Assembly: GCA_002780795.1 (NCBI GenBank)
Contig: PEUF01000041.1
Location: 3,826 to 67,825, forward strand
Length of the DNA: 64,000 bases
Direction of reading: 5' to 3'
DNA from: Candidatus Roizmanbacteria bacterium CG02_land_8_20_14_3_00_36_15
GTDB taxonomy: Bacteria > Patescibacteriota > Microgenomatia > UBA1406 > GWC2-37-13
Shown: in pieces, positions 10,876 through 35,920 of the stretch
How positions within the stretch are numbered: position 1 is the first letter of the stretch
Layout of the letters: each line of letters starts with the position of its first letter
Notes under the pieces: model-generated
What the model saw: only the letters and a program-made list of their open reading frames with translations
Database searches by the model: none
What the model was told of the DNA's origin: nothing
Program-made: the position numbers and the translations under genes

Positions 10876-10914
10876 TGAAAATTCAATGAAAATTGCAAAT
10901 TAAAAATTGGAAAT
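10876..10914. repeat. Heptamer array TGNAAAT between the xer gene and the DUF2079 gene
   Basis: tgaaaat|tcaa|tgaaaat|tgcaaat|taaaaat|tggaaat. Confidence 0.75.
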
Positions 10915-11864
10915 TACTGATTACCTGAATGATACTTCTCATGTATCTCTCTTAATCTTGTATTGGTCACATGAGTATAGATCTGGGTGGTGGAAATATT
11001 TTTATGACCGAGCATTTCCTGAACGGCGCGCAAATCAGCCCCATGATTCAATAGATCTGTGGCAAATGAATGTCTTAAGGCATGGGGACCTAGACGATCA
11101 ACCAATCCGGCTTTTTTTCTATATTTTTCAACTAGACGTTCAATCGATCTTGCTGACAAACGCAATTTCTCATCGGTCAAACCAAGTTTGGACTTTGGAC
11201 CTGAATATCTGATGAAAAGTGGGCGATAGGAATCGTCTCTTTTGCGTAGATATTGGTTTAACCATTCCTTAGCTTTTTTAGACAAAAAAACTACTCTGCG
11301 TTTGCCGCCCTTACCCAAAACACTGAACTCCCCTGTTTTAATATTCGCCTCATCGCGATTCAAAGAAACTAGTTCCGAGACACGCAGGCCGGTAGAGAAA
11401 AGCACCTCTAATATAGCTCTGTCACGAAGCCCCATAATCTCTCGAGTATCGACAATGTTAAACAGTCTATTCAGGTTTTCCGGACTTAAAAATTTTATGT
11501 TACGGTCTCGTTGTTTTCCCAGTTCAATCATCTCAGGCGAGATGACTTTGACGTGCTGTTTTATCAAATAGCGAAGCATGCTTCTGATTGCTACCAGAAA
11601 GTAAGTTTGCGTTTGGCGCGCCAAGACACCCTTAAATGGATTTTTATACTGATGAGAAAGATATAATCGGAAGTTTCTGATCGTCTCTTCATTAATATCT
11701 TCAATGTTTGCATCTTCACTTTGATTTTTGATTTTTGCACTTTGAACTACCCAGTTCTGAAAGAACTGGAGATAGTACCCATACATTTTCACCGTCTTTA
11801 ACGAAAGATTTTTATCCAGTTCGCAGTATTCTAAAAATCTAAGTACCGCTTCCTTGATTGACAT
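10914..11864 (-). CDS. Tyrosine recombinase, XerC/XerD family
   Basis: C-terminal catalytic region HALRHSFATDLL...GHKNISTTQIYTHV. N-terminal SAM-like core-binding domain. Confidence 0.85.
   Translation of the reverse strand: MSIKEAVLRFLEYCELDKNLSLKTVKMYGYYLQFFQNWVVQSAKIKNQSEDANIEDINEETIRNFRLYLSHQYKNPFKGVLARQTQTYFLVAIRSMLRYLIKQHVKVISPEMIELGKQRDRNIKFLSPENLNRLFNIVDTREIMGLRDRAILEVLFSTGLRVSELVSLNRDEANIKTGEFSVLGKGGKRRVVFLSKKAKEWLNQYLRKRDDSYRPLFIRYSGPKSKLGLTDEKLRLSARSIERLVEKYRKKAGLVDRLGPHALRHSFATDLLNHGADLRAVQEMLGHKNISTTQIYTHVTNTRLREIHEKYHSGNQ
11716..11747. repeat. Heptamer array inside the xer ORF
   Basis: cactttg|atttttg|atttttg|cactttg, encoding SAKIKNQSE. Confidence 0.65.
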
Positions 11865-11910
11865 ACTTCAATATTAAACGACGTTATAAATAAAATCAAG
11901 ACGAACGCGG

Positions 11911-13263
11911 CTATAAGTTTTCCCAATTAGCTTTTACCCAAAGATAGGTACCTAAGGCCATAGTAAAGTTAAAAGGCGCCCTATAACCATTAAAAACCCC
12001 TCCTCTTCCTGGTGTACCGTCGGCGAAATAGATTTCATGCAAGCCTTTATGTCTTATTATTAAATCTTCGATCTTTCCTAAAGCTTCTTTTGCTTCCAAT
12101 TCTTTACCGGTTTTTTTTAAAGCTGCCGCAAATAAGATGGATACTTCGGGCCAAAAAATGCCTTTATCTCCGCTGTTATACCACTGGCTAAACCTTAATA
12201 TTCTCAAACCTCTGTCAATCAATCTATCCGGGTATCCTGGATGATTAACGGTTTCTACCAATTGATACTGTCCGAAGCGCATATTTCCATTTGATACTTC
12301 AGCCAATATTTTTTCCGCTCTGGCTTGATCAGCTATGCCGGTAACGATGGCCCAAAAATTAGCTAAGCTATCAAAATAGTCGTATCTTTCACCTTTTTCA
12401 TCAACCCAATCGAGGTAATGACTCCTTGTTTCATCTAGTTGCGGCCAAAATAATTTATTTATATTATTTTTCAGAATATTTGTCATTGCTATCAATTGCT
12501 TCGACCATTCATCATTACCCGCAACAATTACGCCATCTCTCAAATCCAATAATGTTTTGTACCAAAGAACGTTTGTTAATAGTACATTTCCCGATTTGCA
12601 AATAGAGTCTTGACGAGTCGAAAGGGCAGCTTCAGTTATCAAAGATGTACTATCATTGACAAATTCATCTAAATAACTTCTGAAAAAATCTTTTAGATGG
12701 TTTTGATGTGCCTGCCAAAATTCTTTTTTTTCGTCGTTAGATACATTCTGCGACGACAAATAATTACCAGCTAACATTAAAATTAAAAAATTATCAGCCA
12801 TATGTTGAGACTTACCTGCTAAAATATCTGGGTTTAAGAGTATTTTAGCTAGAGGTATTGTTCTGTCTTTTTCTAGATGAGCTGGAATTTTTAATTTAGC
12901 GTGGCTCAACATATACAGAGCGTGAATATAAGACATGCTTCGGTAAGGAATGAGTGGAGACTGATCGAGAAAAAAATTTAAACTGGCCCGAACCGTTTGT
13001 AATTTCTTCTCGTCGGCTGTAGATAAACTACCTAATCCTCCCCAGACAGCGTCTCTTAACCAAACACCCTGGTCAAAATGACCCTCCTTTTTACCACAAG
13101 CAGCATAACCAATAGATCTAGCGCAGCGATCTAATCCCGCAGAAGCAATATAAACAGGATTTTCTTCACTCATAGCTTTAATTAAAGTATACCTGAACGT
13201 GTCGAAGGACGAAGTTGGAAAAACGATTGTTAGTGCTCTGTTTATTCGCAAATCCGAACGCAT
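11911..13263 (-). CDS. (alpha/alpha)6-barrel glycoside hydrolase-like protein (GH100/GH133/debranching-enzyme-like)
   Basis: WLRDAVWGG and a C-terminal GYRAPFNFTMALGTYLWV-type pattern, typical of six-hairpin glycosidases. The true start may be the internal MSEENP. Confidence 0.45.
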   Translation of the reverse strand: MRSDLRINRALTIVFPTSSFDTFRYTLIKAMSEENPVYIASAGLDRCARSIGYAACGKKEGHFDQGVWLRDAVWGGLGSLSTADEKKLQTVRASLNFFLDQSPLIPYRSMSYIHALYMLSHAKLKIPAHLEKDRTIPLAKILLNPDILAGKSQHMADNFLILMLAGNYLSSQNVSNDEKKEFWQAHQNHLKDFFRSYLDEFVNDSTSLITEAALSTRQDSICKSGNVLLTNVLWYKTLLDLRDGVIVAGNDEWSKQLIAMTNILKNNINKLFWPQLDETRSHYLDWVDEKGERYDYFDSLANFWAIVTGIADQARAEKILAEVSNGNMRFGQYQLVETVNHPGYPDRLIDRGLRILRFSQWYNSGDKGIFWPEVSILFAAALKKTGKELEAKEALGKIEDLIIRHKGLHEIYFADGTPGRGGVFNGYRAPFNFTMALGTYLWVKANWENL

Positions 13264-16985: not shown

Positions 16986-17299
16986 TTAATCCTTATAGTT
17001 TCTTAGCTCTTTGTCAATTCTCTTTTCAAGCTTATCCATATTTTCTTGGAAGGATTGTTCAATATTAATATTAAATTCACCAGCCAATACTAAAACTGAC
17101 CAAAGACAATCAGAAAGTTCGTGTTTGAGTTTTTCTTTATCGAAATCAGATTTAACCAAATTAAATAAATCATTGACGTCTTTCATAAACCCTCTAATAA
17201 GTTGTTCTGTTGACCATTTACTCCCGTCTTTTTTGATCTCCAGTTTTTATATTTCTCTCTAATTACTAAACTTCGTTTTTGTAAATCAATAATATCCAT
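16986..17299 (-). pseudogene. MazG-like nucleotide pyrophosphohydrolase, frameshifted at an A5 run
   Basis: Two ORF-track fragments join into one ~104-aa MazG-like protein (MDIIDLQKRSLVIREKYK|LEIKKDGSKWSTEQLIRGFMKDVNDL...) if one A is added to TATAAAAACTGG near 17236-17240. Confidence 0.6.
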
Positions 17300-17306
17300 A
17301 AATACA

Positions 17307-17546
17307 TTATATAAAATCATGTTTTTTAATAAAAGCTCTTCCTGAACCAGATTTGAGATACTTTTCAAAGTTATAAGCAGTGTATTTATTGGAGAAAGCA
17401 AAATAGGAGATGAGTTTTACTGGTAATAATGGTTTAGTTACTCGGACATAACCCTTGTTATGTCTTTCAATTCTTTCTTTTAAATTATCAGTAGAACCAA
17501 TATAAGTTTTCTTATTCAAACAGAAAAGAATATAAACATAATACAT
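17307..17546 (-). CDS. GIY-YIG nuclease superfamily protein (small, stand-alone)
   Basis: YYVYIL...TYIGSTDNLKERIERHN matches GIY-YIG motifs. 79 aa with no extra DNA-binding domain. Confidence 0.8.
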   Translation of the reverse strand: MYYVYILFCLNKKTYIGSTDNLKERIERHNKGYVRVTKPLLPVKLISYFAFSNKYTAYNFEKYLKSGSGRAFIKKHDFI

Positions 17547-17635
17547 AGGCGGACTTCGTCTCGCCGAAGCCGAGCCGAATTATTATTATGAATCCCGCCT
17601 TCATCCCGCGAAGCGGGATTTCGGCGAGGCGAAGG
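17547..17635 (-). other. GC-rich structured element between tRNA-Ser and the GIY-YIG start codon
   Basis: Minus strand: outer 15-bp stem CTTCGCCTCGCCGAA / TTCGGCGAGACGAAG (one mismatch) encloses hairpin ATCCCGC-TTC-GCGGGAT and an alternative partner GCGGGATT. Confidence 0.5.
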
Positions 17636-17723
17636 CGGAGGAGGCGAGATTCGAACTCGCGATGACCTTGCGGTCATACAGACTTTCCAGATCTGCGCCA
17701 TAAACCAGCTAGGCGACTCCTCC
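17636..17723 (-). tRNA. tRNA-Ser (anticodon GGA), class II
   Basis: Acceptor GGAGGAG/CTCCTCC, anticodon arm CAGAT-CTGGAAA-GTCTG, long variable arm TATGACCGCAAGGTCATC, T arm GCGAG-TTCGAAT-CTCGC. Confidence 0.9.
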
Positions 17724-17794
17724 TGTTGGTCGGTTTAGCAATAAAATTATATCACGATTATTAACAAACATTTTTATTCTGATAAAATACAACT

Positions 17795-18079
17795 ATGTCC
17801 CCGGATTCAATATACAGAAAATCAGAGAAAATAACCGAAAGAGGAGTTGGCTCATGTGTCATCTATTACATTAAACCAGGAACGATTGAAAAAGCATTAT
17901 CATGATGCAATCGAAGTTGCATATGTGGTAAAAGGAAGTTGCAAGACACACAAGTAAAGATACGTATATGTTTATCAAAAAGGCGAAGTTCACGAGGTAA
18001 TCAATGATTCAAAAAATGAACTTGTTTTTGTCTGTTTAACAATCCCTCCTGAATCTAAAAAAAACACGCACTATGTATA
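17795..18079 (+). pseudogene. Cupin-domain gene remnant (one frameshift and one in-frame TAA)
   Basis: MSPDSIYRKSEKITERGVGSCVIYYIKPGTIE, a shift at GAAAAAG, then KHYHDAIEVAYVVKGSCKTHK*RYVYVYQKGEVHEVINDSKNELVFVCLTIPPE. This follows the cupin pattern H.H...E...G...G..H. Confidence 0.5.
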
Positions 18080-18118
18080 GAACAAAGAGCGGGGTAAGCG
18101 TTCTACAAATAAGAAAAT

Positions 18119-19847: not shown

Positions 19848-19961
19848 GAAGACAAAAAATCCAAACACGACCATTTTATCATCTTGTAAAATGATTACAA
19901 CGATAATATAATAAACTGCATATATTACAATTAAAATTCTTAAAATTTAGTTTTAATTACT

Positions 19962-21059
19962 ATGACCAAATATACTAATAAAAGAATACTAGTTATTTTT
20001 ACAGGAGGGACAGTGGCAGGAAATGTCGCCAAGAGCAATGTTTCGCAAAATGTCAAATCTGATCCAAACAGCTTTATGACGATATTGGATAATTCCGTAG
20101 ATGTTATCAAAAAAAATTAGAATATTGAGATTAAACCTTCAATTATTGAACTTTTCAATGTCGACAGCTCAAATATCCAGCCGGAAAATTGGACAGCAAT
20201 TGTAGAAAAAATTCAGGAAAAATATGATGATTTTGATTCTTTTGTCGTACTACATGGTACCAATACCATGGGTTATACTGCCTCAGCTCTCTCTTTTGCT
20301 CTGGAAAATATTAATAAACCGGTGATAATGACAGGAGCACAAGTCCCTTTAGGATATCTTGGGACCGATGCAGTAACTAATTTAGTTAACTCTTTGCGGT
20401 TAGCCGTCTGGGAATACCATGATGTTAAGGGAGTGATTGCTGTTTTTGGAAGCAAGATTATCTCTGGAACAAGAGTAAAAAAGGGTACGGATTTTGACTA
20501 TGATCCTTTTAATTCTTTTCAAGCAGGCGCTCTGGGTCAAATCGGACGCTTTATGAGGATAGATGAGGCGGCCTTAAGAAAACACGTCAATTATTTATCA
20601 AAATATAAACCCTTGGCGATTCAATCAAGGGTGTTAAGCGTAAAAAAAGACTTTGATACAAAAAGCATTGCCTCACTGACAGAATTTCCCGGAATGTCTG
20701 TCGATCTTTTCAAATCTTTGGTAGAAAATAACGGTATTAAAGCCTTTATTTTCAGAGCTTTCGGCGCCGGAGATCCAAGCGCTCATTTATTTCCTGCTTT
20801 TGAATATTTAAAAACGAAAAAAATTCCGATCATCGTGACCACTCAAGCTCCTGGCGGAGTTGCAAGCTTTCAAGTCAACGAGACCGGCCAGTATCTAAAG
20901 GAACATGACTTGGCCATCCCAGCTTTTGACATGAGTATGGAATCAATGACAGCAAAACTTGCTTGGCTATTGGCTCAAAAAATGGATTATGAGCAAATAA
21001 AAATCAAAATGTCAGAAGATCTGCACGGAGAAATAAATATTGAGAATGAATTAATATAG
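19962..21059 (+). pseudogene. Type I L-asparaginase / GatD-like amidohydrolase interrupted by one in-frame TAG
   Basis: ATG at 19962 gives ...ILVIFTGGTVAG...VIKKN*NIEI...VVLHGTNTMGYT..., in frame with track ORF 20268-21059. TAG at 20118-20120. Both asparaginase signatures (TGGT, HGTxTM) are present. Confidence 0.7.
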
Positions 21060-28292: not shown

Positions 28293-28985
28293 ATGAATAA
28301 CAGCTGTACTGCTCTCATTCCTTTTCATAATGAAAAAAAACGTATCCTTAATGTCCTTAATGTCCTCTTCAAGATTGAAACCCTTTCTCAAATCATCTGT
28401 GTTGACGATGGTTCATCTGACAAAACCTATTCTCTTATTAAAAAACAGTGTCCACTAATTACAGTCGTCCGATTAAAAAAGAACATGGGAAAAAGCGCTG
28501 CTGTGGCCGCCGGACTAAGAAAAGTAAGAACCAAATACGTTTTTTTATGCGATGCCGATCTCCATCATCTTAAAAAATCAGAGGTGGAAAGAGCCATTAG
28601 ATCCGCCCTAAAAAGCAGGGTAATCGACTTGCTGATTTTGCGACGTACTCACTCTATCTTCCAAACCAAACTGTCTCGTGGAGATATTCTTTTTTCTGGA
28701 GAAAGAATTATGAAAACTAAAGATTTAATCAATGTTTTTAAAAGCCACCCTAGAAAATACCAACTGGAAATTGCTATTAATAAATACATGATTGATAATA
28801 AGAAGAGTGTTAGATGGCTACCTTCATCGGCTTTAAGCACTTTTAAAATTTATAAGGTCGGCCTATTTTTAGGAACGATGAACGAATGGAAGATGATAAC
28901 CAGTATGTTTACCTATGCCGGTTGGCATGAATATTGGCGGCAGTTTCTACTTTTTTGCCACGAAAAACATTCTAGAATAGCTTGA
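28293..28985 (+). CDS. Family 2 glycosyltransferase
   Basis: ALIPFHNEKKRI, CVDDGSSDKT and CDADL motifs. Confidence 0.7.
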   Translation: MNNSCTALIPFHNEKKRILNVLNVLFKIETLSQIICVDDGSSDKTYSLIKKQCPLITVVRLKKNMGKSAAVAAGLRKVRTKYVFLCDADLHHLKKSEVERAIRSALKSRVIDLLILRRTHSIFQTKLSRGDILFSGERIMKTKDLINVFKSHPRKYQLEIAINKYMIDNKKSVRWLPSSALSTFKIYKVGLFLGTMNEWKMITSMFTYAGWHEYWRQFLLFCHEKHSRIA

Positions 28986-29756
28986 CCAAACCCTTCCTCA
29001 AAATTTTATCAAAACTCTTCCTTAACCAAACAATGGCTAAAACCAGATAAACGATATTTAACAAAAAACTGATCAAAATCTTGTGCCAATCGAGATAACC
29101 CTGCGCCAGAACGAGACGAGCCCCTTCAAAAATATAACTGGTGGGAATAAAACTGGCTATCTTCTGAGCCCAAAGTGGTAAGACCGATAAGGGATAGTAA
29201 ATGGCGGAAAAGGGAGAAATGACTGCCACCGCCGCCCAGGCCAATGTCTGAATCCGCGTCCCCCCTCTTAAAATAAGACCGGCGACTAAGAAACCGACCC
29301 ACCAACCAGTCATAATCAGACATAAAATAAAAGGAATTAAAGAAAATCCGTATACAAAAAAATTATATTTATAAAGAAAAAAAGCCAATACTAAAGCAAA
29401 AGAAAGACTTAAGAAGGCTTTTATCAATCCGATTATAATCACCGACACCATCCATTCGTCTAGATTTAAAGGCGAACAAATAAATTAATCAAATTCTTAT
29501 TCCAGAGTTCTTCTAACAGGTTAACCGTAATTTCATACTGACCTCGCCAAACGATTATCCAAAACAAAATACCGGAAATAATCATGATCATGATTGTTGA
29601 GTTACCACCGCTCATCTTTTTAAAATAACTACCGGTCAACCCCCAGAGTAAAAGATCCATCACCGGCCAGTAGAAAGCGTCGGACATCCTATCTAAGCTT
29701 TGTCTAAAATAGTAAAAATATCTTAGAACCATGGCATAAATTCTTGATGTTTTCAT
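28972..29756 (-). pseudogene. ABC-2 type transporter permease, split by a single-nucleotide frameshift
   Basis: The N-terminal 96 aa end ...NLINLFVRL*. The second frame reads upstream of its ATG as GSPLNLDEW-MVSVIII, so LFV|SPLNLDEW is restored by re-reading one T near 29475. Confidence 0.65.
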
Positions 29757-30758: not shown

Positions 30759-31802
30759 TTATAATCTGGTCAGTTCGTCTCTAATTCTGCCTATTATTTC
30801 CTTTCTATATTTCGGATTTCTATATACTTTTATCGGGTCAACCACCAAATTCAGAAAATTGACGTCTTTCTTTTCTGACACAAAATCAGACATAATTGCT
30901 AAAACAATCATTGTTTGTTCTCTAAGATATTTAATATTATGAGTAAACCTTTTTTCCTGGCTTCTGCTTTTCACTTTTTTTAATCGTCGATTAACGCCAG
31001 TGATTAGTTTTTCCGCGTATTCGTCGACTCCTTCAAGACTATTCTTTTCTGGAGTAAAGATTACCAGAAGATCTAGTTGGGGAAAAACAGGTGTCAATAG
31101 TTTAAACAACCTTTCATATATGGCATATTCATCTTTGTCAAAATACCCAAAATTTCTATACCAGCGAGCCCACATCAAGGCGTCGGTATAGATACTTGTG
31201 TCACAAATCAATAAAGTCGGATTATTTCTTGCCGTATTATTGTTTTTCTCAAGCTGAGATAATAAATTGGTTAACAAAAAGAAAACTTGAGAACGAAGCA
31301 TAAATTTCTTGTCTTTTTGAGATCTCCGCCAAAAAGGATTACCTAAATAAGGCTCCTTTTTGAAAAGGACATTCTCTCCATCTTTTTTTAATTTCCGGAC
31401 TAAAGCCCTTGAGACAATGCTTTTACCAGCGCCAAGAGTGGCTAAAAAACCTATTCGTTTGATTGGAGTTTCTTGTTTTTTGGTTTGAAGTTCGTTTTTC
31501 AAGGAAGAAAGTTTAAAGATCTTTTGAAAAATCTTCATCTCTGCTTGTCTATCTGCTCTTTCTTTTTTATTACCGGTTTTTATCGAAGACTCTTGACATA
31601 AATCTTGCCAAAAATCCTCCAAAAAACGAGAAATAAACTGTTGTTTCTGTGGGCCGGCAGGAATATTTTGATAGGTTCTTTCACAGGCTGACAGTAGGTC
31701 AATCGTTCTAACCAATCTTTCTCTGAATAAAACATTGGGTGGCTTTAATCGTTCTTTAATCTTTATCCATCTATCCTGTAGATGCTGTCGAATTTCTTTC
31801 AT
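30759..31802 (-). CDS. Deoxynucleoside kinase-like P-loop protein with a ~110-aa N-terminal extension
   Basis: Walker A LGAGKS. KEPYLGNPFW...RSQVFFLL resembles the dNK motif EPV..NPYL...Q..FL. Confidence 0.5.
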   Translation of the reverse strand: MKEIRQHLQDRWIKIKERLKPPNVLFRERLVRTIDLLSACERTYQNIPAGPQKQQFISRFLEDFWQDLCQESSIKTGNKKERADRQAEMKIFQKIFKLSSLKNELQTKKQETPIKRIGFLATLGAGKSIVSRALVRKLKKDGENVLFKKEPYLGNPFWRRSQKDKKFMLRSQVFFLLTNLLSQLEKNNNTARNNPTLLICDTSIYTDALMWARWYRNFGYFDKDEYAIYERLFKLLTPVFPQLDLLVIFTPEKNSLEGVDEYAEKLITGVNRRLKKVKSRSQEKRFTHNIKYLREQTMIVLAIMSDFVSEKKDVNFLNLVVDPIKVYRNPKYRKEIIGRIRDELTRL

Positions 31803-31933
31803 AAAAAAATCAGGAAAGCAAAGACAATTAAACTAATCAATCATTAACACTCTTATATGAGAAATTTCTAATTGTTTTGCTAAATCAATCCAAATTTTAG
31901 ACTGTGGATTAAATATCATAAAATTTCTATCGA

Positions 31934-33211
31934 TTATTGAGGAATTAAGGTGTATTCGCCATTTGATGAAAACTGTTGAAATAAATCAGCAGACGCCATT
32001 ACTCTCAAGAGACCGCTGGTTTCTGTTAAAATGTCAAAGCCATAATTTCTAATAAGGTTTTCTCGAATTTGTTTTAAAATCTTAAATTGAGAACTGTTGC
32101 TGGTCACCCTATCAAGTTTCTGTCTATTAACCAAACTGCCTATTTCTTTTGTTATAAATTCTTGTAAGGGAATCAGTCTGCTTTTTAGGTCTTGCGGATT
32201 AATGTCCGGAATAAGATTCATCCCTCTAAGAACATAAAAAGCCCCTAGTAAGTTAAATGCCTGACTAATTCTAACATTCTCATTAAATCGTCTTCCAAAA
32301 TGATTACAATCTTTATTCCAAATAAGATTTTCTACATCCTCTTTTCTCAAAATTTCACCAACGTTAGCCGTACCTATTTGTTCTTTAATAAACTCTCTAG
32401 CTTCTAAAAACATCATCCAAGCATATTCTTTTTCCTCTTTCGTATAGGCATCTAACAAACATTTTTTTGCCGCTAAGATAACATTGGCTAAAGCCGAATG
32501 CTGCCACATCGGCATACCAATCCCTTTTATATTGTCTCCATCGTCAGTCGCGACTGGTACCCCGCGTCCCACAGAAAAATTAAAAGTCCTTTGAAAATCG
32601 CCTAATCTAGCATCGGCTTCTTGAACAATCTGTAAAATTGTATAAAACTTTTCTGAAGAAATCTGTTCTCATATTTCTTCAGTAATTTCCGACCAATTGG
32701 CTAAAATCCCAGGTGTCCGGCTAGGAATACCAAAAACATCAGGGAAGCCAAATCTATCTATCTCTGTCTTTCCCATAATGGCTGGAAAAGAATGGTTGGT
32801 GGCGTCATGATTTAAAACCACTAATTTTATTATCGCTCTTTCTACCGCATAAAACTGAGGAAACATTTTATCCACTTCACTTAAAGCGCTGTATGGATGT
32901 TCCCACTGAACAGTTGACCAAAAAGGCTCTTGCTTTAAATAACCAAGGTCATGAACTAAAGATGAAGCTTCAGTTAAATCACGATCTCTATCATTAATAA
33001 GATCTTTATATTCGGGTAGATAACTGATTTGTAAGGCTAAATCAGCGGTTTGAATAGCGTGTTCTCTTCCGTGAGCGTCATTAAGAGGAAATTTGTCTAA
33101 AATCGCCGTTCTTTCGATTGACATATTATAACGTTGGCTCACAGAATAGCGAAAAAGTCTTTTACTGTCAAGAATAATTAAATAAATATCTAATAACTCA
33201 AAGTCACTCAC
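31934..33211 (-). pseudogene. HD-domain protein, one reading frame interrupted by a single in-frame TGA
   Basis: ORF 32669-33211 (H...HD: HGREHAIQ, VHDLGY) stops at TGA 32669-32671. The next 32 codons are open (EQISSEKFYTILQIVQEADARLGDFQRTFNFS) and run in frame into ORF 31934-32572. Confidence 0.55.
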
Positions 33212-33693
33212 CCATCAATTAAAAAAATAGGGAAGTGAGGTATTATATATTATTCCAACAACCTAGACACCATAAAATAAAGTCGGGGAGACCTCTAAAA
33301 AACCCAGAAAACTACTAAGAAAGTCTGAGGGAAGAATAGAGGAATAATTAACAATTAATTAGTTTATTAATTTTTATTTTTCAGTAATTTTCAAAATTTA
33401 GATTGATATAACAAAGTAACCCTTCTCTTCCGTCGCCCACGGTTAACATCGTAAAAGGTACAATTTACGACGTTATATGCTTTCCTTCTCTCTACGTTAT
33501 CTATCTCGAATTAACCAGTTCCCAAATTTTCTCAATGGTTACATATATCATAGAGGATAAAATTCTTCGTCTTTATCAATACATTTGTTGTCTACAATCA
33601 TCATTCACTCCTTTTTCTCCAATAATTTCTGCTTATTTTCTCTCGATCTAACTCTTCTCCCTTTAGATTTTTTTGTTTTATTTACTTTTATTT

Positions 33694-34110
33694 TTTAGAT
33701 TATTTTATTGCGCCAAACATAAAAAAATGAGGCTAAAAATAATGCTATTTAAAAGACTAATTAAGTTTAGAGTGTAATAACAATCTGTATTATAATTTAT
33801 GAGGCTAAATTAATCCATAGGCTTGCCGAAAGGGAAAGGTATTTAGATTGTTACGTCCCTCTATAGTTTAATTTCCAAGGCTAATGCGAATATAAATATG
33901 TGTTTAACACAATAATAGTTTAGGCTGTAAAGACATTCTGAAAATCTAATTTCAAGGCTAAAATAATAGCAGAACCACCCATTATATATTTACGATTTAG
34001 ATTGCTATTATAATCTAAGTTTAAAATTTAGCTTGGTTTTTTATTAGTTATCCACAGAGATAGATGTCTAATCTTAGAGTGTAGTAATAACCCATCTCAA
34101 TGATTCAGCC
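33694..34110 (+). repeat. Degenerate tandem array, 5-6 units of 72-77 nt, with two conserved boxes per unit
   Basis: Box A (TTTAGAKTGT-like) at 33694, 33766, 33842, 33919, 33996 and 34073. Box B (AATTTnnAAGGCTAA / ATGAGGCTAA) core AGGCT at 33730, 33802, 33878 and 33955. Sequence between boxes diverges. Confidence 0.6.
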
Positions 34111-34147
34111 TCATTTTCCATAGAGGTTTGACTCTTTGTATATTTTA

Positions 34148-34176
34148 TCATGAACCGAATTTATTCTGGTTCATGA
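34148..34176 (+). other. Perfect 9-bp-stem hairpin followed by a T-rich tract (terminator-like on the plus strand)
   Basis: TCATGAACC-gaatttattct-GGTTCATGA then cctatagtttttta. No plus-strand ORF lies upstream. Confidence 0.3.
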
Positions 34177-34388
34177 CCTATAGTTTTTTATAAATACTAT
34201 AAGATAATTACTCACGTCCGTGGATCTATCTCTAAGATCTAATCTTTAGAAACATCATTCCCCTCTCCTCTACTTTTATATCCACCCAGATTTTTTGGAG
34301 TCTGTGTTTTCAATAACTAATATCAAATCCATCTAAATACTTTATGAGGTTTCAAGATACTTGTTTTGAGCAATTACCAGGTGATTTT

Positions 34389-35201
34389 TTATTTCATCGA
34401 CAAAATCATTATCAAAAAAACAAATCCCCAAACGAACAGATACTCACGGATTGTTTCACGGAATAACCGCTGATCCAAATAACTGCAAACCAAGCCGGAA
34501 AAACTATAATAGGAGGCTGCCATAAACAAAGCCAGAATTGTTCCCGGCAAGGCAGTAAAAGAAAAGATTACCACTAACTCGGTCACCAACAAAGATGTTA
34601 AAACTGAATAACTAATGATTTCTCTCTCAAGAAAAGATGGCATTTTTACGCTCCAATATAACTGCAAACTTAAAAGAAAAACAACTACTCCTGAAACTAA
34701 ACCATCAGTTATAAAACCAAAATGGAAAGAGAATATGCTATTAAAGATTAAAAAAACAACTAAGGTTTGAAAGAAAAAATTAACAGAAAAAGCGGCTCTA
34801 TAAAGTTGAAGACTCTTCTCTACTTTTACATTAAAAATGTTGGCTATAAGAAAATTGGCATAAATTGAAATGGCATAAATAATTATAAAAGGCAACCTGG
34901 TAAGCCATCTGCCTGGGAAAAGAAAGTAGAATAGATAAAAAGCAAGACTTAGCACAATCGGCATCAAAAAAAGAGTAAACCACTCTACCCTTTCAATTCC
35001 CTCGATAATAGCAAAATAAGTTAAAAAGTATCCAGCAACAAGAAACGAAATAATAAAGATTGGGGCTTTATCAAAGAAAAAAAATGTCGCCACAAACATC
35101 AAAAAAGTCAAAACTAAACTACTGACGATAAAGCGAACTCGTTTTTCTATCTTTAGGGCTTTTTTATTAAATAAATTAAGAAAAGATTTTAACTTTCGCA
35201 T
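34389..35201 (-). CDS. Polytopic membrane protein, hypothetical
   Basis: 270 aa with about 8 hydrophobic helices. Overlaps the yebC end by 13 nt. Confidence 0.45.
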   Translation of the reverse strand: MRKLKSFLNLFNKKALKIEKRVRFIVSSLVLTFLMFVATFFFFDKAPIFIISFLVAGYFLTYFAIIEGIERVEWFTLFLMPIVLSLAFYLFYFLFPGRWLTRLPFIIIYAISIYANFLIANIFNVKVEKSLQLYRAAFSVNFFFQTLVVFLIFNSIFSFHFGFITDGLVSGVVVFLLSLQLYWSVKMPSFLEREIISYSVLTSLLVTELVVIFSFTALPGTILALFMAASYYSFSGLVCSYLDQRLFRETIREYLFVWGFVFLIMILSMK

Positions 35202-35920
35202 ACAAAATTGAGATTAGAAAAAACTTTATGAACTTCATCTAGGTCTTCCATTGCGTCGATCAAATTTACAATCCTTTGCCTCATAGCTTTATCACTGATA
35301 GTAATTATTGAATTGGGTTTATAATCAAGCTCGGGCGGATTTGCTTTAAGGCCGGCCAAAAAATCATCTACTTTTCCCAGATTTTCAAAGGAGAAATAAA
35401 CAGAAAAAGTTTCTTCATCTTCATCAATATCAAAGGCATCTATTTTTTCGGCAAACTCTAACACTTGTTCTTGTTTAGCCTTGTTTTTTTCAAAAACAAC
35501 TAAACCACAACGCTGAAAAAGATAGTTTACTGAGCCTGAACTACCCAGTTTACCTTGATGTTTTTCCAAAATATTTCTAATCTCAGATAAGGTACGATTG
35601 GCATTATCGGTAGTTGCTTGGATAATCAGCGCCACACCACCAGGAGCAAAACCTTCATAAAATACCTCTTTTAACTGTGCCCTATCAGGACCACTGGCTC
35701 GTTCAATTGCTCGGTTGATATTGTCTTTAGGCATATTGAACTGTTTGGCTTTATCAACAGCTAAACGAAGTTTTATATTATTAGCCTGATCACCAATTCC
35801 TCCGCCTTCGATTACCGCCAAAGTAATCAATCTTGAGAACTTGGAAAATATATTACCTCGAGCTTTATCTTTGCTCTCTTTCCCCCTTTTTATCTTTGAC
35901 CATTTATTATGCCCGGACAC
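35189..35920 (-). CDS. yebC: YebC/PmpR family DNA-binding transcriptional regulator
   Basis: MSGHNKWSKIKRGK...NMPKDNINRAI, the full-length YebC signature. Confidence 0.9.
   Translation of the reverse strand: MSGHNKWSKIKRGKESKDKARGNIFSKFSRLITLAVIEGGGIGDQANNIKLRLAVDKAKQFNMPKDNINRAIERASGPDRAQLKEVFYEGFAPGGVALIIQATTDNANRTLSEIRNILEKHQGKLGSSGSVNYLFQRCGLVVFEKNKAKQEQVLEFAEKIDAFDIDEDEETFSVYFSFENLGKVDDFLAGLKANPPELDYKPNSIITISDKAMRQRIVNLIDAMEDLDEVHKVFSNLNFVCES

Follow-up and report, generated by a model that had tools for sequence, protein, structure and literature searches.

The longest stretch without an open reading frame (ORF) in the 64-kb piece of Candidatus Roizmanbacteria DNA analysed here (the window) is one copy of a non-coding element of about 1 kb, found at a constant locus in at least 87 distinct Roizmanbacteria. 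The element is most likely a protein-bound DNA site and not a CRISPR array, a replication origin or a folded RNA, and the locus is best explained as a lineage-specific cis-acting DNA locus of these bacteria. Its most conserved part is a 34-bp core with the layout of a tyrosine-recombinase site, accompanied by an array of boxes repeated every 76–78 bp. We favour, tentatively and at somewhat less than an even chance, a recombination site that acts at the DNA level, is akin to lox, dif and cer, and has an accessory array in helical phase. No earlier description of the element was found in the literature searched.

A non-coding element downstream of yebC–DUF5656

The gap at 33212–34388 measures 1177 nt. 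No ORF of at least 40 amino acids (aa) lies within it, and the runner-up among window stretches lacking an ORF of at least 60 aa reaches 420 nt. The initial annotation had singled out this 1.18-kb gap as the longest ORF-free stretch, and its observation of the gap is correct in all details. Homologous collinear gaps occur downstream of yebC–DUF5656 in at least 87 non-redundant contigs of Candidatus Roizmanbacteria; every relative fetched through DUF5656 homologues carries one, and of the contigs retrieved by the core pattern, at least 117 in number, nearly all share the yebC–DUF5656 synteny. Two long contigs also carry the element: Ga0302252_1000003 (896,589 bp), with the core near 114.9 kb, and Ga0156625_11 (1,216,967 bp), with the locus at 676–680 kb. 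A contig search with YebC returned matches from distant phyla only. In more than 80 loci the element has yebC, DUF5656 and an ABC transporter as its conserved neighbours, and the flanking proteins are only 45–75% identical across the syntenic lineages. Collinear identity to the window element is 64% over 978 nt in relative L100 and 64% over 918 nt in L103; between close relatives, the differences consist of point changes and small indels. Some contigs end at the element. The comparisons draw on a seven-way alignment of relatives (A2) and on 87-sequence sets of elements (including A3). Looking for the boxes and their period in related genomes had been suggested initially, and both are conserved: the period of 76/77/78, the boxes and a DnaA-box 9-mer recur in about 87 independent relatives, and the observation is not a matter of chance. 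Genomes of CPR bacteria are streamlined, at about 1 Mb, and their spacers are very short; the lineage-wide retention of 0.7–1.3 kb of non-coding DNA in such genomes implies an important function.

The orientation of the element always matches that of the flanking genes. Among the 56 listed elements with an ACGRACGT motif, most have the 5′ purine box just upstream of it. The 3′ boundary is kept as ...CCCTA-T-run-GATAGGTGAGTG in relatives with differing downstream genes, and the element stops just ahead of the next gene's canonical promoter; the same TTGACA-17-TAnnnT arrangement also follows it in L100, L101 and L103. The gene after the element varies between genomes and is usually an ABC transporter gene. 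In the window genome an orphan gene of 150–180 aa follows the array, and other genomes carry different downstream genes; the 180-aa ORF of the window has homologues only in its own cluster, and its nominal start is GTG, the probable true start being the ATG at 33122–33124. The features, in the order of the minus-strand reading and followed by the candidate recombinase, are:

33205–34273, minus strand: whole conserved element, bounded by the 5′ purine box and the 3′ GGGTGAGTG motif, oriented as the flanking genes
34258–34273, minus strand: 5′ purine box GTAGAGGAGAGGGGAA, the family-wide 5′ boundary
34177–34221, minus strand: ACGGACGT (34214–34221), then the CTATAG motifs CTTATAGT (34196–34203) and ACTATAGG (34177–34184)
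34148–34176, unstranded: perfect 9-bp hairpin TCATGAACC/GGTTCATGA, a genome-specific insertion
34073–34117, minus strand: unit with inverted box B (GAGGCTGAA, 34104–34117) and a degenerate box A palindrome (34073–34096)
34048–34056, minus strand: perfect DnaA-box 9-mer TGTGGATAA
33766–34019, unstranded: four well-formed 24-bp box A palindromes, consensus TTTAGATTGTTAT.ACAATCTAAA, from a symmetric consensus scan
33727–33962, minus strand: box B copies TTTAGCCTC at 33952–33962, 33875–33885, 33799–33809 and 33727–33737
33694–33737, plus strand: degenerate first unit, box A at 33694–33717 and box B at 33727–33737
33480–33660, minus strand: purine-rich tract with GAGAAG-type boxes
33443–33476, unstranded: lox/dif-like core ATAACGTCGTAAA-TTGTACCT-TTTACGATGTTAA, with 12–13-bp inverted arms and an 8-bp asymmetric centre
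33397–33431, minus strand: purine box GGAAGAGAAGGG (33420–33431), then a box A palindrome (33397–33420), from alignment A3
33345–33400, unstranded: extremely AT-rich tract
33297–33348, minus strand: pyrimidine box ATTATTCCTCTATTCTTCCCTC (33327–33348) and weak terminator-like hairpin CTTAGTAGTTTTCTGGG followed by TTTTTT (33297–33319)
33205–33240, minus strand: 3′ boundary motif CCTCACTTCCCTATTTTTTTAATTGATGGGTGAGTG, overlapping the nominal start (GTG) of the 180-aa ORF
33122–33171, minus strand: promoter and start of the downstream gene, with TTGACA at 33166–33171 and TATTCT at 33143–33148, from a promoter scan
10914–11864, minus strand: gene for a 316-aa Xer-type tyrosine recombinase, candidate partner of the core (Pfam Phage_integrase, 7e-45)
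11878–11887, minus strand: ATAACGTCGT within the xer promoter, identical to the core-arm 10-mer (feature span with the gene, 10914–11887)

Core site, phased array and DnaA 9-mer

The family core of 34 bp, ATAACGTCGTAAA-TTGTAYCT-TTTACGAYGTTA, has a 13-8-13 layout and thus the inverted 11–13-bp arms and 6–8-bp centre of tyrosine-recombinase core sites. The initial annotation located the array but missed this core, the most conserved feature of all. It is invariant in seven of seven relatives that were found independently of it and whose DUF5656 proteins are only 55–75% identical, and it is more conserved than the neighbouring proteins. The core is single-copy per locus and in the window, and exact matches occur in at least 117 metagenome contigs, which makes the core pattern a precise and easily searched marker of the locus. 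No other 100-nt bin is strongly structured (the core bin has z −3.25 on the gene strand and −2.6 on the opposite one), and the core lies out of helical phase with the array. Composition changes at this point: across 87 elements the purine fraction of the gene strand is 56–64% at −250 to 0 from the core and 34–42% after it, so that the 250-nt pyrimidine-rich tract reported on the plus strand is real and family-wide. Past the core, the window palindrome at 33397–33420 is centred 52 bp from the core centre, a distance shared by 16 elements; mean GC falls to 21% at +50 to +150 in the family, and terminator-like hairpins at +150 to +300 are few, numbering 17 on the gene strand and one on the other across the 87 elements.

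Box A (TTTAGAKTG, at most one mismatch) occurs on the plus strand at 33397, 33662, 33694, 33766, 33842, 33996, 34027 and 34073, and position 33919 reads TTTAGGCTG. Its count across the whole window is at chance (64 observed, 62 expected), so the notable feature is the local same-strand cluster. Box B (AGGCTAA) lies at 33729, 33801, 33877 and 33954. The initially reported unit spacings of 72, 76, 77, 77 and 77 are exact, and the inverted box B placed near 34107 is TTCAGCCTCATTTT at 34104–34117, 93% complementary to 33724–33737. Box B is found in both orientations in the family, and the copy upstream of the 9-mer is inverted in most relatives. TRF makes no array call because the units are only about 50–65% alike; the mean column identity of the six units is 51%. 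Autocorrelation of the single window sequence gives 77 as the top lag and 154 as the second, with a signal at lag 77 that is modest in this one sequence (0.386, the maximum in shuffles being 0.361 ± 0.010).

The well-formed palindromes at 33996–34019, 33919–33942, 33842–33865 and 33766–33789 are spaced by 77, 77 and 76 bp, and each box B sits 21 bp before its palindrome's left arm in the minus-strand reading. Family-wide, the logo of the unit is a.aTTTAGCCTCAAAAaT.a..aTTTAGATTgTTAt.ACAatCTAAA, and palindromes are found to either side of the core. Their spacing is dominated by the 76–78 class (77 bp 43 times, 76 bp 29 times, 78 bp 25 times), with a second class at 86–88 bp, and the intervening sequence varies freely. 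The A/T tracts of the array show an 11.0-bp sub-period, with about seven A/T peaks per unit (77 = 7 × 11): AA/TT power at 11.0 bp is 0.783, as compared with 0.234 ± 0.019 in shuffles and 0.28–0.30 in the flanks.

The consensus DnaA box noted initially, TTATCCACA on the plus strand, is indeed present at 34048–34056. Its minus-strand form TGTGGATAA occurs in exactly one copy and in constant orientation in 69 of 78 elements (88%), about 100-fold enriched over the flanks; no cluster of DnaA boxes accompanies this one perfect box, and one-mismatch boxes stay at the background rate. The 9-mer lies between the arms of an inverted repeat with partial covariation, and in 46 of 73 elements the centre of the next palindrome follows it at a distance of 45–46 bp. 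Closer to the 5′ end, ACGRACGT is found in 56 of 79 elements, in many listed sequences within the context TT(T)ACG[GA]ACGTGAATAAATATCCTATAGT, and a second direct copy is frequent (ACGRACGT-N8-ACTATAGG). ACTATAGG bears a resemblance, and a resemblance only, to a T7-like promoter. Two promoter assignments were rejected: ACGRACGT...TATAGT as a TTTACG-17-TATAGT promoter, with its −35 TTG unconserved and a 14-nt spacing in one subfamily, and the array units themselves, which show no consistent sigma-70 hexamers and score at chance in a scan. The hairpin reported at 34148–34176 exists in the window, but relatives have gaps there in alignment A2, and it is not a feature of the family.

Candidate roles of the element

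We propose that the near-invariant site at 33443–33476, with the core layout of loxP, dif and cer, would be the active centre, where a single highly conserved Xer-type recombinase would bind both arms and exchange strands across the 8-bp centre. The array would be an architectural or accessory region, each 77-bp unit combining the 24-bp palindrome TTTAGATTGT...ACAATCTAAA with a third TTTAGCC half-site 21 bp off, and a putative dimeric DNA-binding protein would occupy both palindromes and half-sites. Since 77 equals 7 × 11 bp and A/T tracts recur every 11 bp, successive sites would lie on one face of the helix, and cooperative binding could then force the DNA into a bent or wrapped course within a defined nucleoprotein complex, which would adjoin the core and the 21%-GC tract. 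The array would give directionality or selectivity, the role of accessory sequences at cer/psi or res. Proteins probably bind the boxes, and candidate binders of the palindrome and of the TGTGGATAA hairpin include DnaA and YebC, the latter encoded just upstream; the outcome of recombination may be dimer resolution or another rearrangement.

The candidate recombinase matches the NCBIfam models for XerC, XerD and XerA below their equivalog cut-offs. Its homologues are 72–83% identical across the clade, more conserved than YebC or DUF5656, and in five genomes the gene lies 1.7–22 kb downstream of the core on the matching strand, a closeness that may reflect ordinary synteny. An invariant GTCGT just precedes the −10 box in six of six xer promoters; the promoter link is nevertheless weak because only YGTCGT is common to all six. 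From the geometry of the site, synteny in the region and a partial motif in the promoter we tentatively infer that the recombinase acts on the core. Against a recombination site stands the GC skew, which keeps its sign at the element in 16 of 16 loci and in the 64-kb window, whereas the classical FtsK-guided dif sits at the terminus. Transcript-like features (the purine/pyrimidine asymmetry, some compensatory changes and the gene-strand terminator-like hairpins) also count against it, as does a core that is out of helical phase with the array, and the resemblance to loxP, noticed post hoc, could be due to chance. A phage or plasmid origin or attachment site was considered and rejected: there is no viral or phage match, and the window holds no second core copy for attL/attR.

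It is possible, though doubtful, that the element represents an undescribed chromosomal class of about 1 kb, in which a lox-like core and a giant phased (7-turn) array assemble a wrapped nucleoprotein machine, or else a new modular, weakly structured RNA of about 0.9 kb. A possible role of such a machine is FtsK-independent, position-independent dimer resolution or other programmed recombination in ultra-small genomes, and the DnaA 9-mer would couple it to the cell cycle. If the element is a recombination site, it offers a lox-like system from nature whose architectural array is built in, a candidate recombinase–site pair, and a handle on chromosome resolution or rearrangement in uncultured organisms.

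The transcript-like features lead to the strongest rival, which we consider unlikely: a minus-strand transcript, be it a long non-coding RNA or the long 3′ UTR of a yebC–DUF5656 operon. Its 77-nt modules and purine boxes (GGAG/GAGAAG) would be sequence-specific protein- or ribosome-binding motifs, and the molecule would serve as a sponge or scaffold and not as a folded RNA. Constant orientation with the flanking genes, strand-asymmetric composition, the strand bias of the hairpins and an end just before the next gene's promoter all suit such a transcript; furthermore, most loci are without a strong terminator after DUF5656, and compensatory changes are seen in variable hairpins such as ATTCCTGAT.../ATCCCGAC... 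and around TGTGGATAA. The element, however, holds no conserved canonical promoter, and RNA-type signals are lacking in the palindromes. Pairing at their inner positions (0.73/0.53/0.76/0.46/0.57) is no more frequent than in shuffles (0.75/0.52/0.77/0.49/0.59) and shows no covariation; G·U and A·C counts are balanced (227 and 224 in palindromes, 42 and 39 in generic hairpins) and assign no strand. Outside the core there is no excess folding energy and no strand preference, the 3′ domain in the window giving z +0.24 and −0.36 on its two strands; RNAalifold finds structure in the core only, with no compensatory pairs, and the structured-RNA test confines partial covariation to the inverted repeat around TGTGGATAA. 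An RNA would offer no obvious reason for an A/T period of 11.0 nt or for spacing quantised at 77/88, and Rfam 15 (gathering threshold; E ≤ 1–10) gave no match in the gap for the window or for 13–19 relatives. Two further RNA candidates were rejected: long-range purine and pyrimidine boxes do not coevolve, cognate pairs scoring no better than non-cognate ones, and ARAGORN, in mitochondrial and relaxed modes as well, finds no tRNA-like units. The single positive box pair came from overlapping windows. The multi-hairpin non-coding RNA suggested in the initial annotation hence finds no support in folding energy, covariation or Rfam. Should an RNA be made after all, it would be a new large non-coding class specific to CPR. 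Among the ideas raised at the outset, iteron-type protein-binding sites come closest in spirit, as palindromic boxes in helical phase with neither covariation nor strand asymmetry would suggest.

Such boxes would equally suit a nucleoprotein locus that works at the DNA level but not in recombination, a reading less probable than the transcript, in which the core is a high-affinity operator. Examples would be a centromere-like partition or organising site (F sopC), a DnaA-titrating or -reactivating locus (datA, DARS, crtS) or a large operator. The DNA-level evidence is shared with the recombination reading, and one perfect, oriented DnaA 9-mer in 88% of elements fits as well. The architecture resembles that of sopC, where direct repeats stand in tandem (12 × 43 bp), every one of them with an inverted repeat of 16 bp (PMC3177203), and the half-sites TTTAGC/GCTAAA also occur in the KorB and KorA operators TTTAGCGGCTAAA and GTTTAGCTAAAC (PMC11790492), although they abut there and stand 12 bp apart in the element. 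No ParB/KorB-type, ParA-type or other DNA-binding gene is found among the conserved neighbours, the DnaA box is single and without a cluster, and the recombinase-site geometry of the core would be left unexplained.

A replication origin or terminus is very improbable. The perfect TTATCCACA, the 21%-GC tract and the repeated motifs recall an origin, and the breaking of some contigs at the element would fit either; an AT-rich region of 21% GC is not origin-specific. The GC-skew check proposed initially contradicts an origin, as there is no flip at the element: cumulative skew is monotonic across the 64-kb window, correction for gene strand leaves a component of −0.036 to the left and −0.068 to the right, skew at third codon positions is negative on either side, and both flanks are equal in sign at 16 of 16 loci. 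Of the usual marks of oriC, the element shows an AT-rich unwinding region but neither a skew sign change nor a DnaA cluster, its DnaA box being single, and no dnaA is present among the ten window ORFs of 436–525 aa tested.

Least probable of all is a guide-RNA array, decayed or atypical (CRISPR, TIGR or type III antitoxin-like), or else a protein-coding gene in decay. The comparison is invited by a fixed period in which some 45 nt are conserved and some 32 nt variable, and by the orphan gene of 150–180 aa after the array in the window genome. But the units are 50–65% alike, the 18 strain contigs have at most three differences over 8 kb and hence no spacer turnover, the locus is syntenic across lineages with diverged flanking proteins, the conserved neighbours include neither cas nor Tas, neither viral contigs nor phage genomes match the core, and the gene downstream changes from genome to genome. 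The period of 76–78 is not a multiple of 3, conserved blocks are kept at all three codon positions, and ORFs are absent from all seven relatives that were compared. The decayed or atypical CRISPR considered in the initial annotation is not supported, no cas gene being identified among the conserved neighbours in more than 80 loci.

Comparison with known systems

The element resembles CRISPR and TIGR arrays in that conserved and variable segments alternate regularly at a fixed period. Unlike in CRISPR, its repeats are not near-identical, show no turnover and have no cas gene among their conserved neighbours. TIGR units are about 36 nt long, with two 8–12-nt repeats and two 9-nt spacers, and adjoin a Tas gene with a Nop domain (PMC12045711). 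The element differs in its period of 76–78 nt, of which about 45 nt are conserved, and in the lack of a Nop domain among its conserved neighbours. Type III toxin–antitoxin loci have near-identical tandem repeats of 34–45 nt directly upstream of a ToxN/AbiQ-type toxin gene, whereas the units here are 77 nt long and degenerate, and the downstream gene varies, usually encoding an ABC transporter. With sopC and the KorB and KorA operators of RK2 (OB, OA) the element shares tandem direct repeats with an inverted-repeat site and the TTTAGC/GCTAAA half-sites; it differs in degenerate repeats, free spacers, half-sites 12 bp apart, a period of 77 bp and the lack of a ParB-family gene among its conserved neighbours.

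The core is close in form to loxP, the site of the phage P1 recombinase Cre, with which it shares 13-bp inverted arms and an 8-bp asymmetric spacer. Compared with the published loxP sequence (PMC1479339), identity is 11/13 in the arm (ATAACGTCGTAAA and ATAACTTCGTATA), 5/8 in the spacer (TTGTATCT and ATGTATGC) and 10/13 in the right arm, about 26/34 overall. In contrast to loxP, which needs no accessory sequence, the core has phased repeats at its flanks that extend over hundreds of bp; it is also chromosomal and conserved lineage-wide, and the only recombinase seen is of Xer type and not Cre. The dif sites of XerC/D and of the single-recombinase systems XerS, XerH and XerA likewise have inverted arms of about 11 bp around a 6–8-bp centre, occur once per locus and are extremely conserved. 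An Xer-family recombinase is encoded in the genome that carries the core as well, within 2–3 kb in some relatives; XerS and XerH adjoin their sites. The core departs from dif in a centre of 8 bp against 6 bp, in arms that form a perfect palindrome and in its position, which is not the GC-skew switch that marks the terminus.

The accessory region of cer/psi spans about 160–180 bp and binds PepA, ArgR or ArcA. That of the element would be larger, with 400–700 bp of 77-bp units, other motifs, and palindromes that flank the core on both sides. By analogy with cer/psi and Tn3 res, the element would nonetheless combine a core site with a long adjoining array of putative architectural-protein sites, and such an array could impose selectivity without FtsK.

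A conserved non-coding locus beside the DUF5656 gene

The gap at 33212–34388 wholly contains zero ORFs of ≥40 aa and, at 1177 nt, is the longest stretch of the window without ORF cover (≥60 aa), the runner-up measuring 420 nt. The next-largest ORF-free stretches are 17263–18118 (856 nt at an 80-aa threshold), which overlaps a tRNA-Ser (17634–17723), and 19848–20267 (420 nt). The neighbours of the 33212–34388 gap are all encoded on the minus strand, referred to here as the gene strand:

35189–35920, minus strand: YebC gene, flanking the gap
34389–35201, minus strand: DUF5656 membrane protein gene, bordering the gap (NCBI source name Candidatus Roizmanbacteria bacterium CG02_land_8_20_14_3_00)
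beyond the gap, on the other side from DUF5656, minus strand: orphan 180-aa ORF
30759–33211, minus strand: genes between the element and an ABC transporter, namely the 180-aa orphan, a 212-aa gene (no Pfam match) and a 347-aa dNK-like gene

The 180-aa ORF probably starts at a later ATG, 33122–33124 on the minus strand (MSIERTAILDK...), instead of its nominal GTG, which overlaps a conserved 3' motif of the element; a canonical promoter, TTGACA-17-TATTCT (33171–33143), lies inside the nominal minus-strand ORF. With this start, the non-coding stretch would extend to about 1265 nt. A word-indexed search found no homologues of the 180-aa protein outside its own cluster, and tblastn gave a 58% match in the relative L103. 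Further along, the ABC-2 permease gene 3' of the ABC ATPase (window 28972–29753) is intact at 261 aa in some strain contigs and split into 96-aa and 159-aa ORFs in others, apparently including the window; from the comparison of L001 with L003 (15446–16231), the split is a population-level frameshift or pseudogene.

Over 8 kb, eighteen contigs of the same population share 99.96–100% identity and an unaltered gap; being nearly identical, they are uninformative on conservation, and show no turnover. More distant relatives are informative: an ORF-free gap of 846–1269 nt lies 3' of the DUF5656 gene in all contigs carrying DUF5656 homologues of 55–75% identity. These gaps are homologous and collinear, with 64% identity between the window and L100 over 978 nt, 64% between the window and L103 over 918 nt, and 69% between L100 and L103 over 1200 nt. 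The genes 3' of the gap vary by genome, being an orphan pair and a dNK-like gene in the window, a dNK-TK fusion in L100, a 140-aa gene in L101 and directly the ABC transporter in L105. A seven-way alignment yielded an invariant block, TAACGTCGTAAATTGTAYCTTTTACGAYGTTA, and a pattern scan of public metagenome contigs with it returned at least 117 contigs, each with one match. Nearly all of them keep the order yebC, DUF5656, element, often with an ABC-transporter gene 266–390 nt past the core; YebC identity among these loci falls as low as 44%. After sequences more than 93% alike were dropped, 87 elements were left. No description of the element was found in the library of papers searched.

Within this family, genomes 98–100% alike in flanking genes can differ by 11–20% between positions −300 and +100 relative to the core (offsets run along the gene strand); conversely, one pair has elements 94–98% identical and genes 83–94% identical. 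In an alignment of four close relatives (L129, L132, L142 and L180), several hundred nucleotides of the element are 79–91% identical while flanking genes are 98–100% identical, and the alignment contains mosaic segments common to different pairs, unit duplications, one of them partial, and a hairpin module present in some and absent in others. This pattern suggests that the free segments undergo allelic recombination together with relaxed or diversifying change, the boxes and core remaining fixed. Several metagenome contigs (L099, L114, L139, L141, L146 and others) terminate inside the element or within about 100 nt of it, consistent with assembly breaks caused by repeats or strain heterogeneity.

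A helically phased palindrome array

The boxes, spacings, hairpin, DnaA-box 9-mer and pyrimidine-rich tract listed in the initial annotation were all recovered where it had placed them. The top autocorrelation in the gap falls at lag 77 (0.386; the maximum in shuffles is 0.361 ± 0.010), a modest signal in a single sequence, and TRF does not report the array because its units are only about 50–65% alike. On the gene strand the unit consensus reads TTTAGCCTCAAAAaT.a..aTTTAGATTgTTAt.ACAatCTAAA, after which about 32 nt are free, so that box A forms a palindrome of 24 bp. A third half-site of the TTTAG type, 21 bp from the palindrome, makes up box B, whose orientation is reversed upstream of the 9-mer. 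Elements carry 1–7 units, and these differing numbers account for the 394–1334 nt separating the DUF5656 stop from the core. Both boxes and period, known at first from one sequence, are kept in relatives: spacings of 77 (n = 43), 76 (n = 29) and 78 bp (n = 25) dominate, with a second class at 86–88 bp (n = 17), and the period of about 77 bp is a conserved property of the family despite the free intervening sequence.

The array also carries a DNA-like property, namely 11-bp A/T phasing. The spectrum of AA/TT dinucleotides peaks sharply at 11.0 bp, where the power is 0.783, compared with 0.234 ± 0.019 in shuffles and 0.28–0.30 in flanking regions; 11.0 bp is the seventh harmonic of 77, and the unit profile has about seven A/T-tract peaks. 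Taken together, these mean that 77 bp spans seven 11-bp turns of the helix and the 86–88 class eight, which places successive palindromes on the same face of the helix.

Two repeats or hairpins lie outside the array. In L100 (6942–7090) and L103 (3618–3770), the stretch from the DUF5656 stop to the element contains a strong, terminator-like bidirectional hairpin, AGAACGCGTTAGTTTTTT-CC-AAAAAAAACTAACGCGTTCT, which is weak or absent in the window; in L130, about four copies of a short tandem repeat, GCTGTTTAGTTTATA, come after the element, about 220–290 nt past the core.

The core site and a candidate recombinase

The core (33443–33476) is the invariant block with one base added per side and reads ATAACGTCGTAAA-TTGTAYCT-TTTACGAYGTTA. 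Its inverted arms of 12–13 bp around an 8-bp asymmetric centre have the geometry of tyrosine-recombinase core sites, and it matches loxP, ATAACTTCGTATA ATGTATGC TATACGAAGTTAT, at 11/13, 5/8 and 10/13 positions (PMC1479339). The window has no second core or partner site marking an integrated island, and searches of viral contigs and phage genomes returned nothing matching the core. The same window encodes a possible partner enzyme:

10914–11864, minus strand: Xer-type tyrosine recombinase, 316 aa (Pfam Phage_integrase, 7e-45)

Its NCBIfam scores (XerC 243, XerD 240 and XerA 199 bits) are all under the equivalog cut-offs. Homologues 72–83% identical occur in hundreds of Roizmanbacteria and Microgenomates sequences, a conservation exceeding that of YebC and DUF5656, which fits an invariant target. 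Core and xer gene share a strand, with xer downstream; the distance is 1.7 kb in L217, 2.8 kb in L182, about 12 kb in L191/L225, about 13 kb in L106/L226 and 21.6 kb in the window, a proximity that may be ordinary synteny. The synteny of xer with DUF2079, GT2 glycosyltransferase and EamA transporter genes is conserved (window 10914–11960, minus strand; L182, L217, L225–L227). The window xer promoter contains ATAACGTCGT, an exact core-arm 10-mer. Six compared xer promoters have TTGATT-N17-TAATAT with an invariant GTCGT ahead of the −10 box (6/6); the stretch shared by all six is limited to YGTCGT, which makes the promoter link to the core weak. The relatives L133, L191, L199 and L212 contain the 15-mer ATAACGTCGTTTAAT at other positions too, in the last three just 5' of an opposite-strand ATG.

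Alternatives and the favoured reading

A modular, weakly structured RNA is an unlikely account of the element. It would explain the constant orientation, the shift from a purine fraction of 0.56–0.64 before the core to 0.34–0.42 (pyrimidine-rich) after it, the compensatory changes in some variable hairpins, and the terminator-like hairpins, of which 17 lie on the gene strand at +150 to +300 among the 87 elements. The box A palindrome, however, shows no covariation, its five inner pairs being standard in 0.73/0.53/0.76/0.46/0.57 of cases (n = 177) against 0.75/0.52/0.77/0.49/0.59 in shuffles. In a strand-asymmetry scan of 328 instances, which handles both palindrome arms equally, non-Watson–Crick positions were G·U in 227 and A·C in 224, favouring neither strand; generic hairpins gave 42 and 39. 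Applied to 87 sequences spanning the core, RNAalifold returned the core hairpin only, with zero compensatory pairs. Across the family, strong structure is confined to the core bin (gene-strand z −3.25, opposite-strand z −2.6), the remaining bins lying at −0.2 to −1.5 without strand preference, and the 3' domain of the window's element folds at shuffle level on both strands (z +0.24, −0.36). Cognate long-range pairs of purine-rich and pyrimidine-rich boxes were no better than non-cognate ones, and Rfam had no match in the gap at E ≤ 10 or in 13 relatives at E ≤ 1. No conserved canonical promoter was found inside the element; canonical TTGACA-17-TAnnnT promoters stand directly past its 3' end. 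Thus, of the protein-site and ncRNA candidates raised initially, the former gains from the DNA-like phased palindromes, while the results of the palindrome covariation test, of Rfam and of folding outside the core go against the latter.

DNA-level roles other than recombination are likewise unlikely, and a replication origin or terminus, which the DnaA box had hinted at, is contradicted. The 9-mer TGTGGATAA is present as a single copy in constant orientation in 69/78 elements (0.73 per kb in elements, 0.007 per kb in flanks), and one-mismatch DnaA boxes are not enriched in elements. It sits between inverted-repeat arms that vary compensatorily (ATCACT/AGTGAT, ATCAGT/ACTGAT, TAGCAG/CTGCTA, ATCAA/TTGAT), with a Watson–Crick fraction of 0.42–0.58 against 0.24–0.34 in shuffles, a difference inflated by relatedness, and the next palindrome centre follows 45–46 bp later in 46/73 elements. 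The 9-mer belongs, as a conserved component, to a single specialised unit and does not form a box cluster. Along the window, cumulative GC skew declines monotonically; replication-associated skew, with genes split by strand, is −0.036 left and −0.068 right of the element, skew at third codon positions is negative to either side of it, and the sign is equal on both flanks in 16/16 loci with at least 3.5 kb each side. dnaA is absent from ten tested window ORFs of 436–525 aa. The decayed or atypical CRISPR array suggested earlier is contradicted by the low likeness of the units and the lack of turnover in the 18 same-population contigs. A TIGR array (PMC12045711) and a pseudogene are contradicted as well.

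The reading with the most support, possible rather than probable, is that the element is a DNA-level cis-acting locus combining a lox/dif-like core with the helically phased palindrome array. The core would probably be served by the lineage's Xer-type recombinase, and the array palindromes would be sites for a putative architectural protein, adjoining the core. The main objection to a recombination site is that the core lies away from a skew switch, which sets it apart from a classical dif guided by FtsK. The array beside the core is comparable to the accessory sequences that accompany cer, psi or res.
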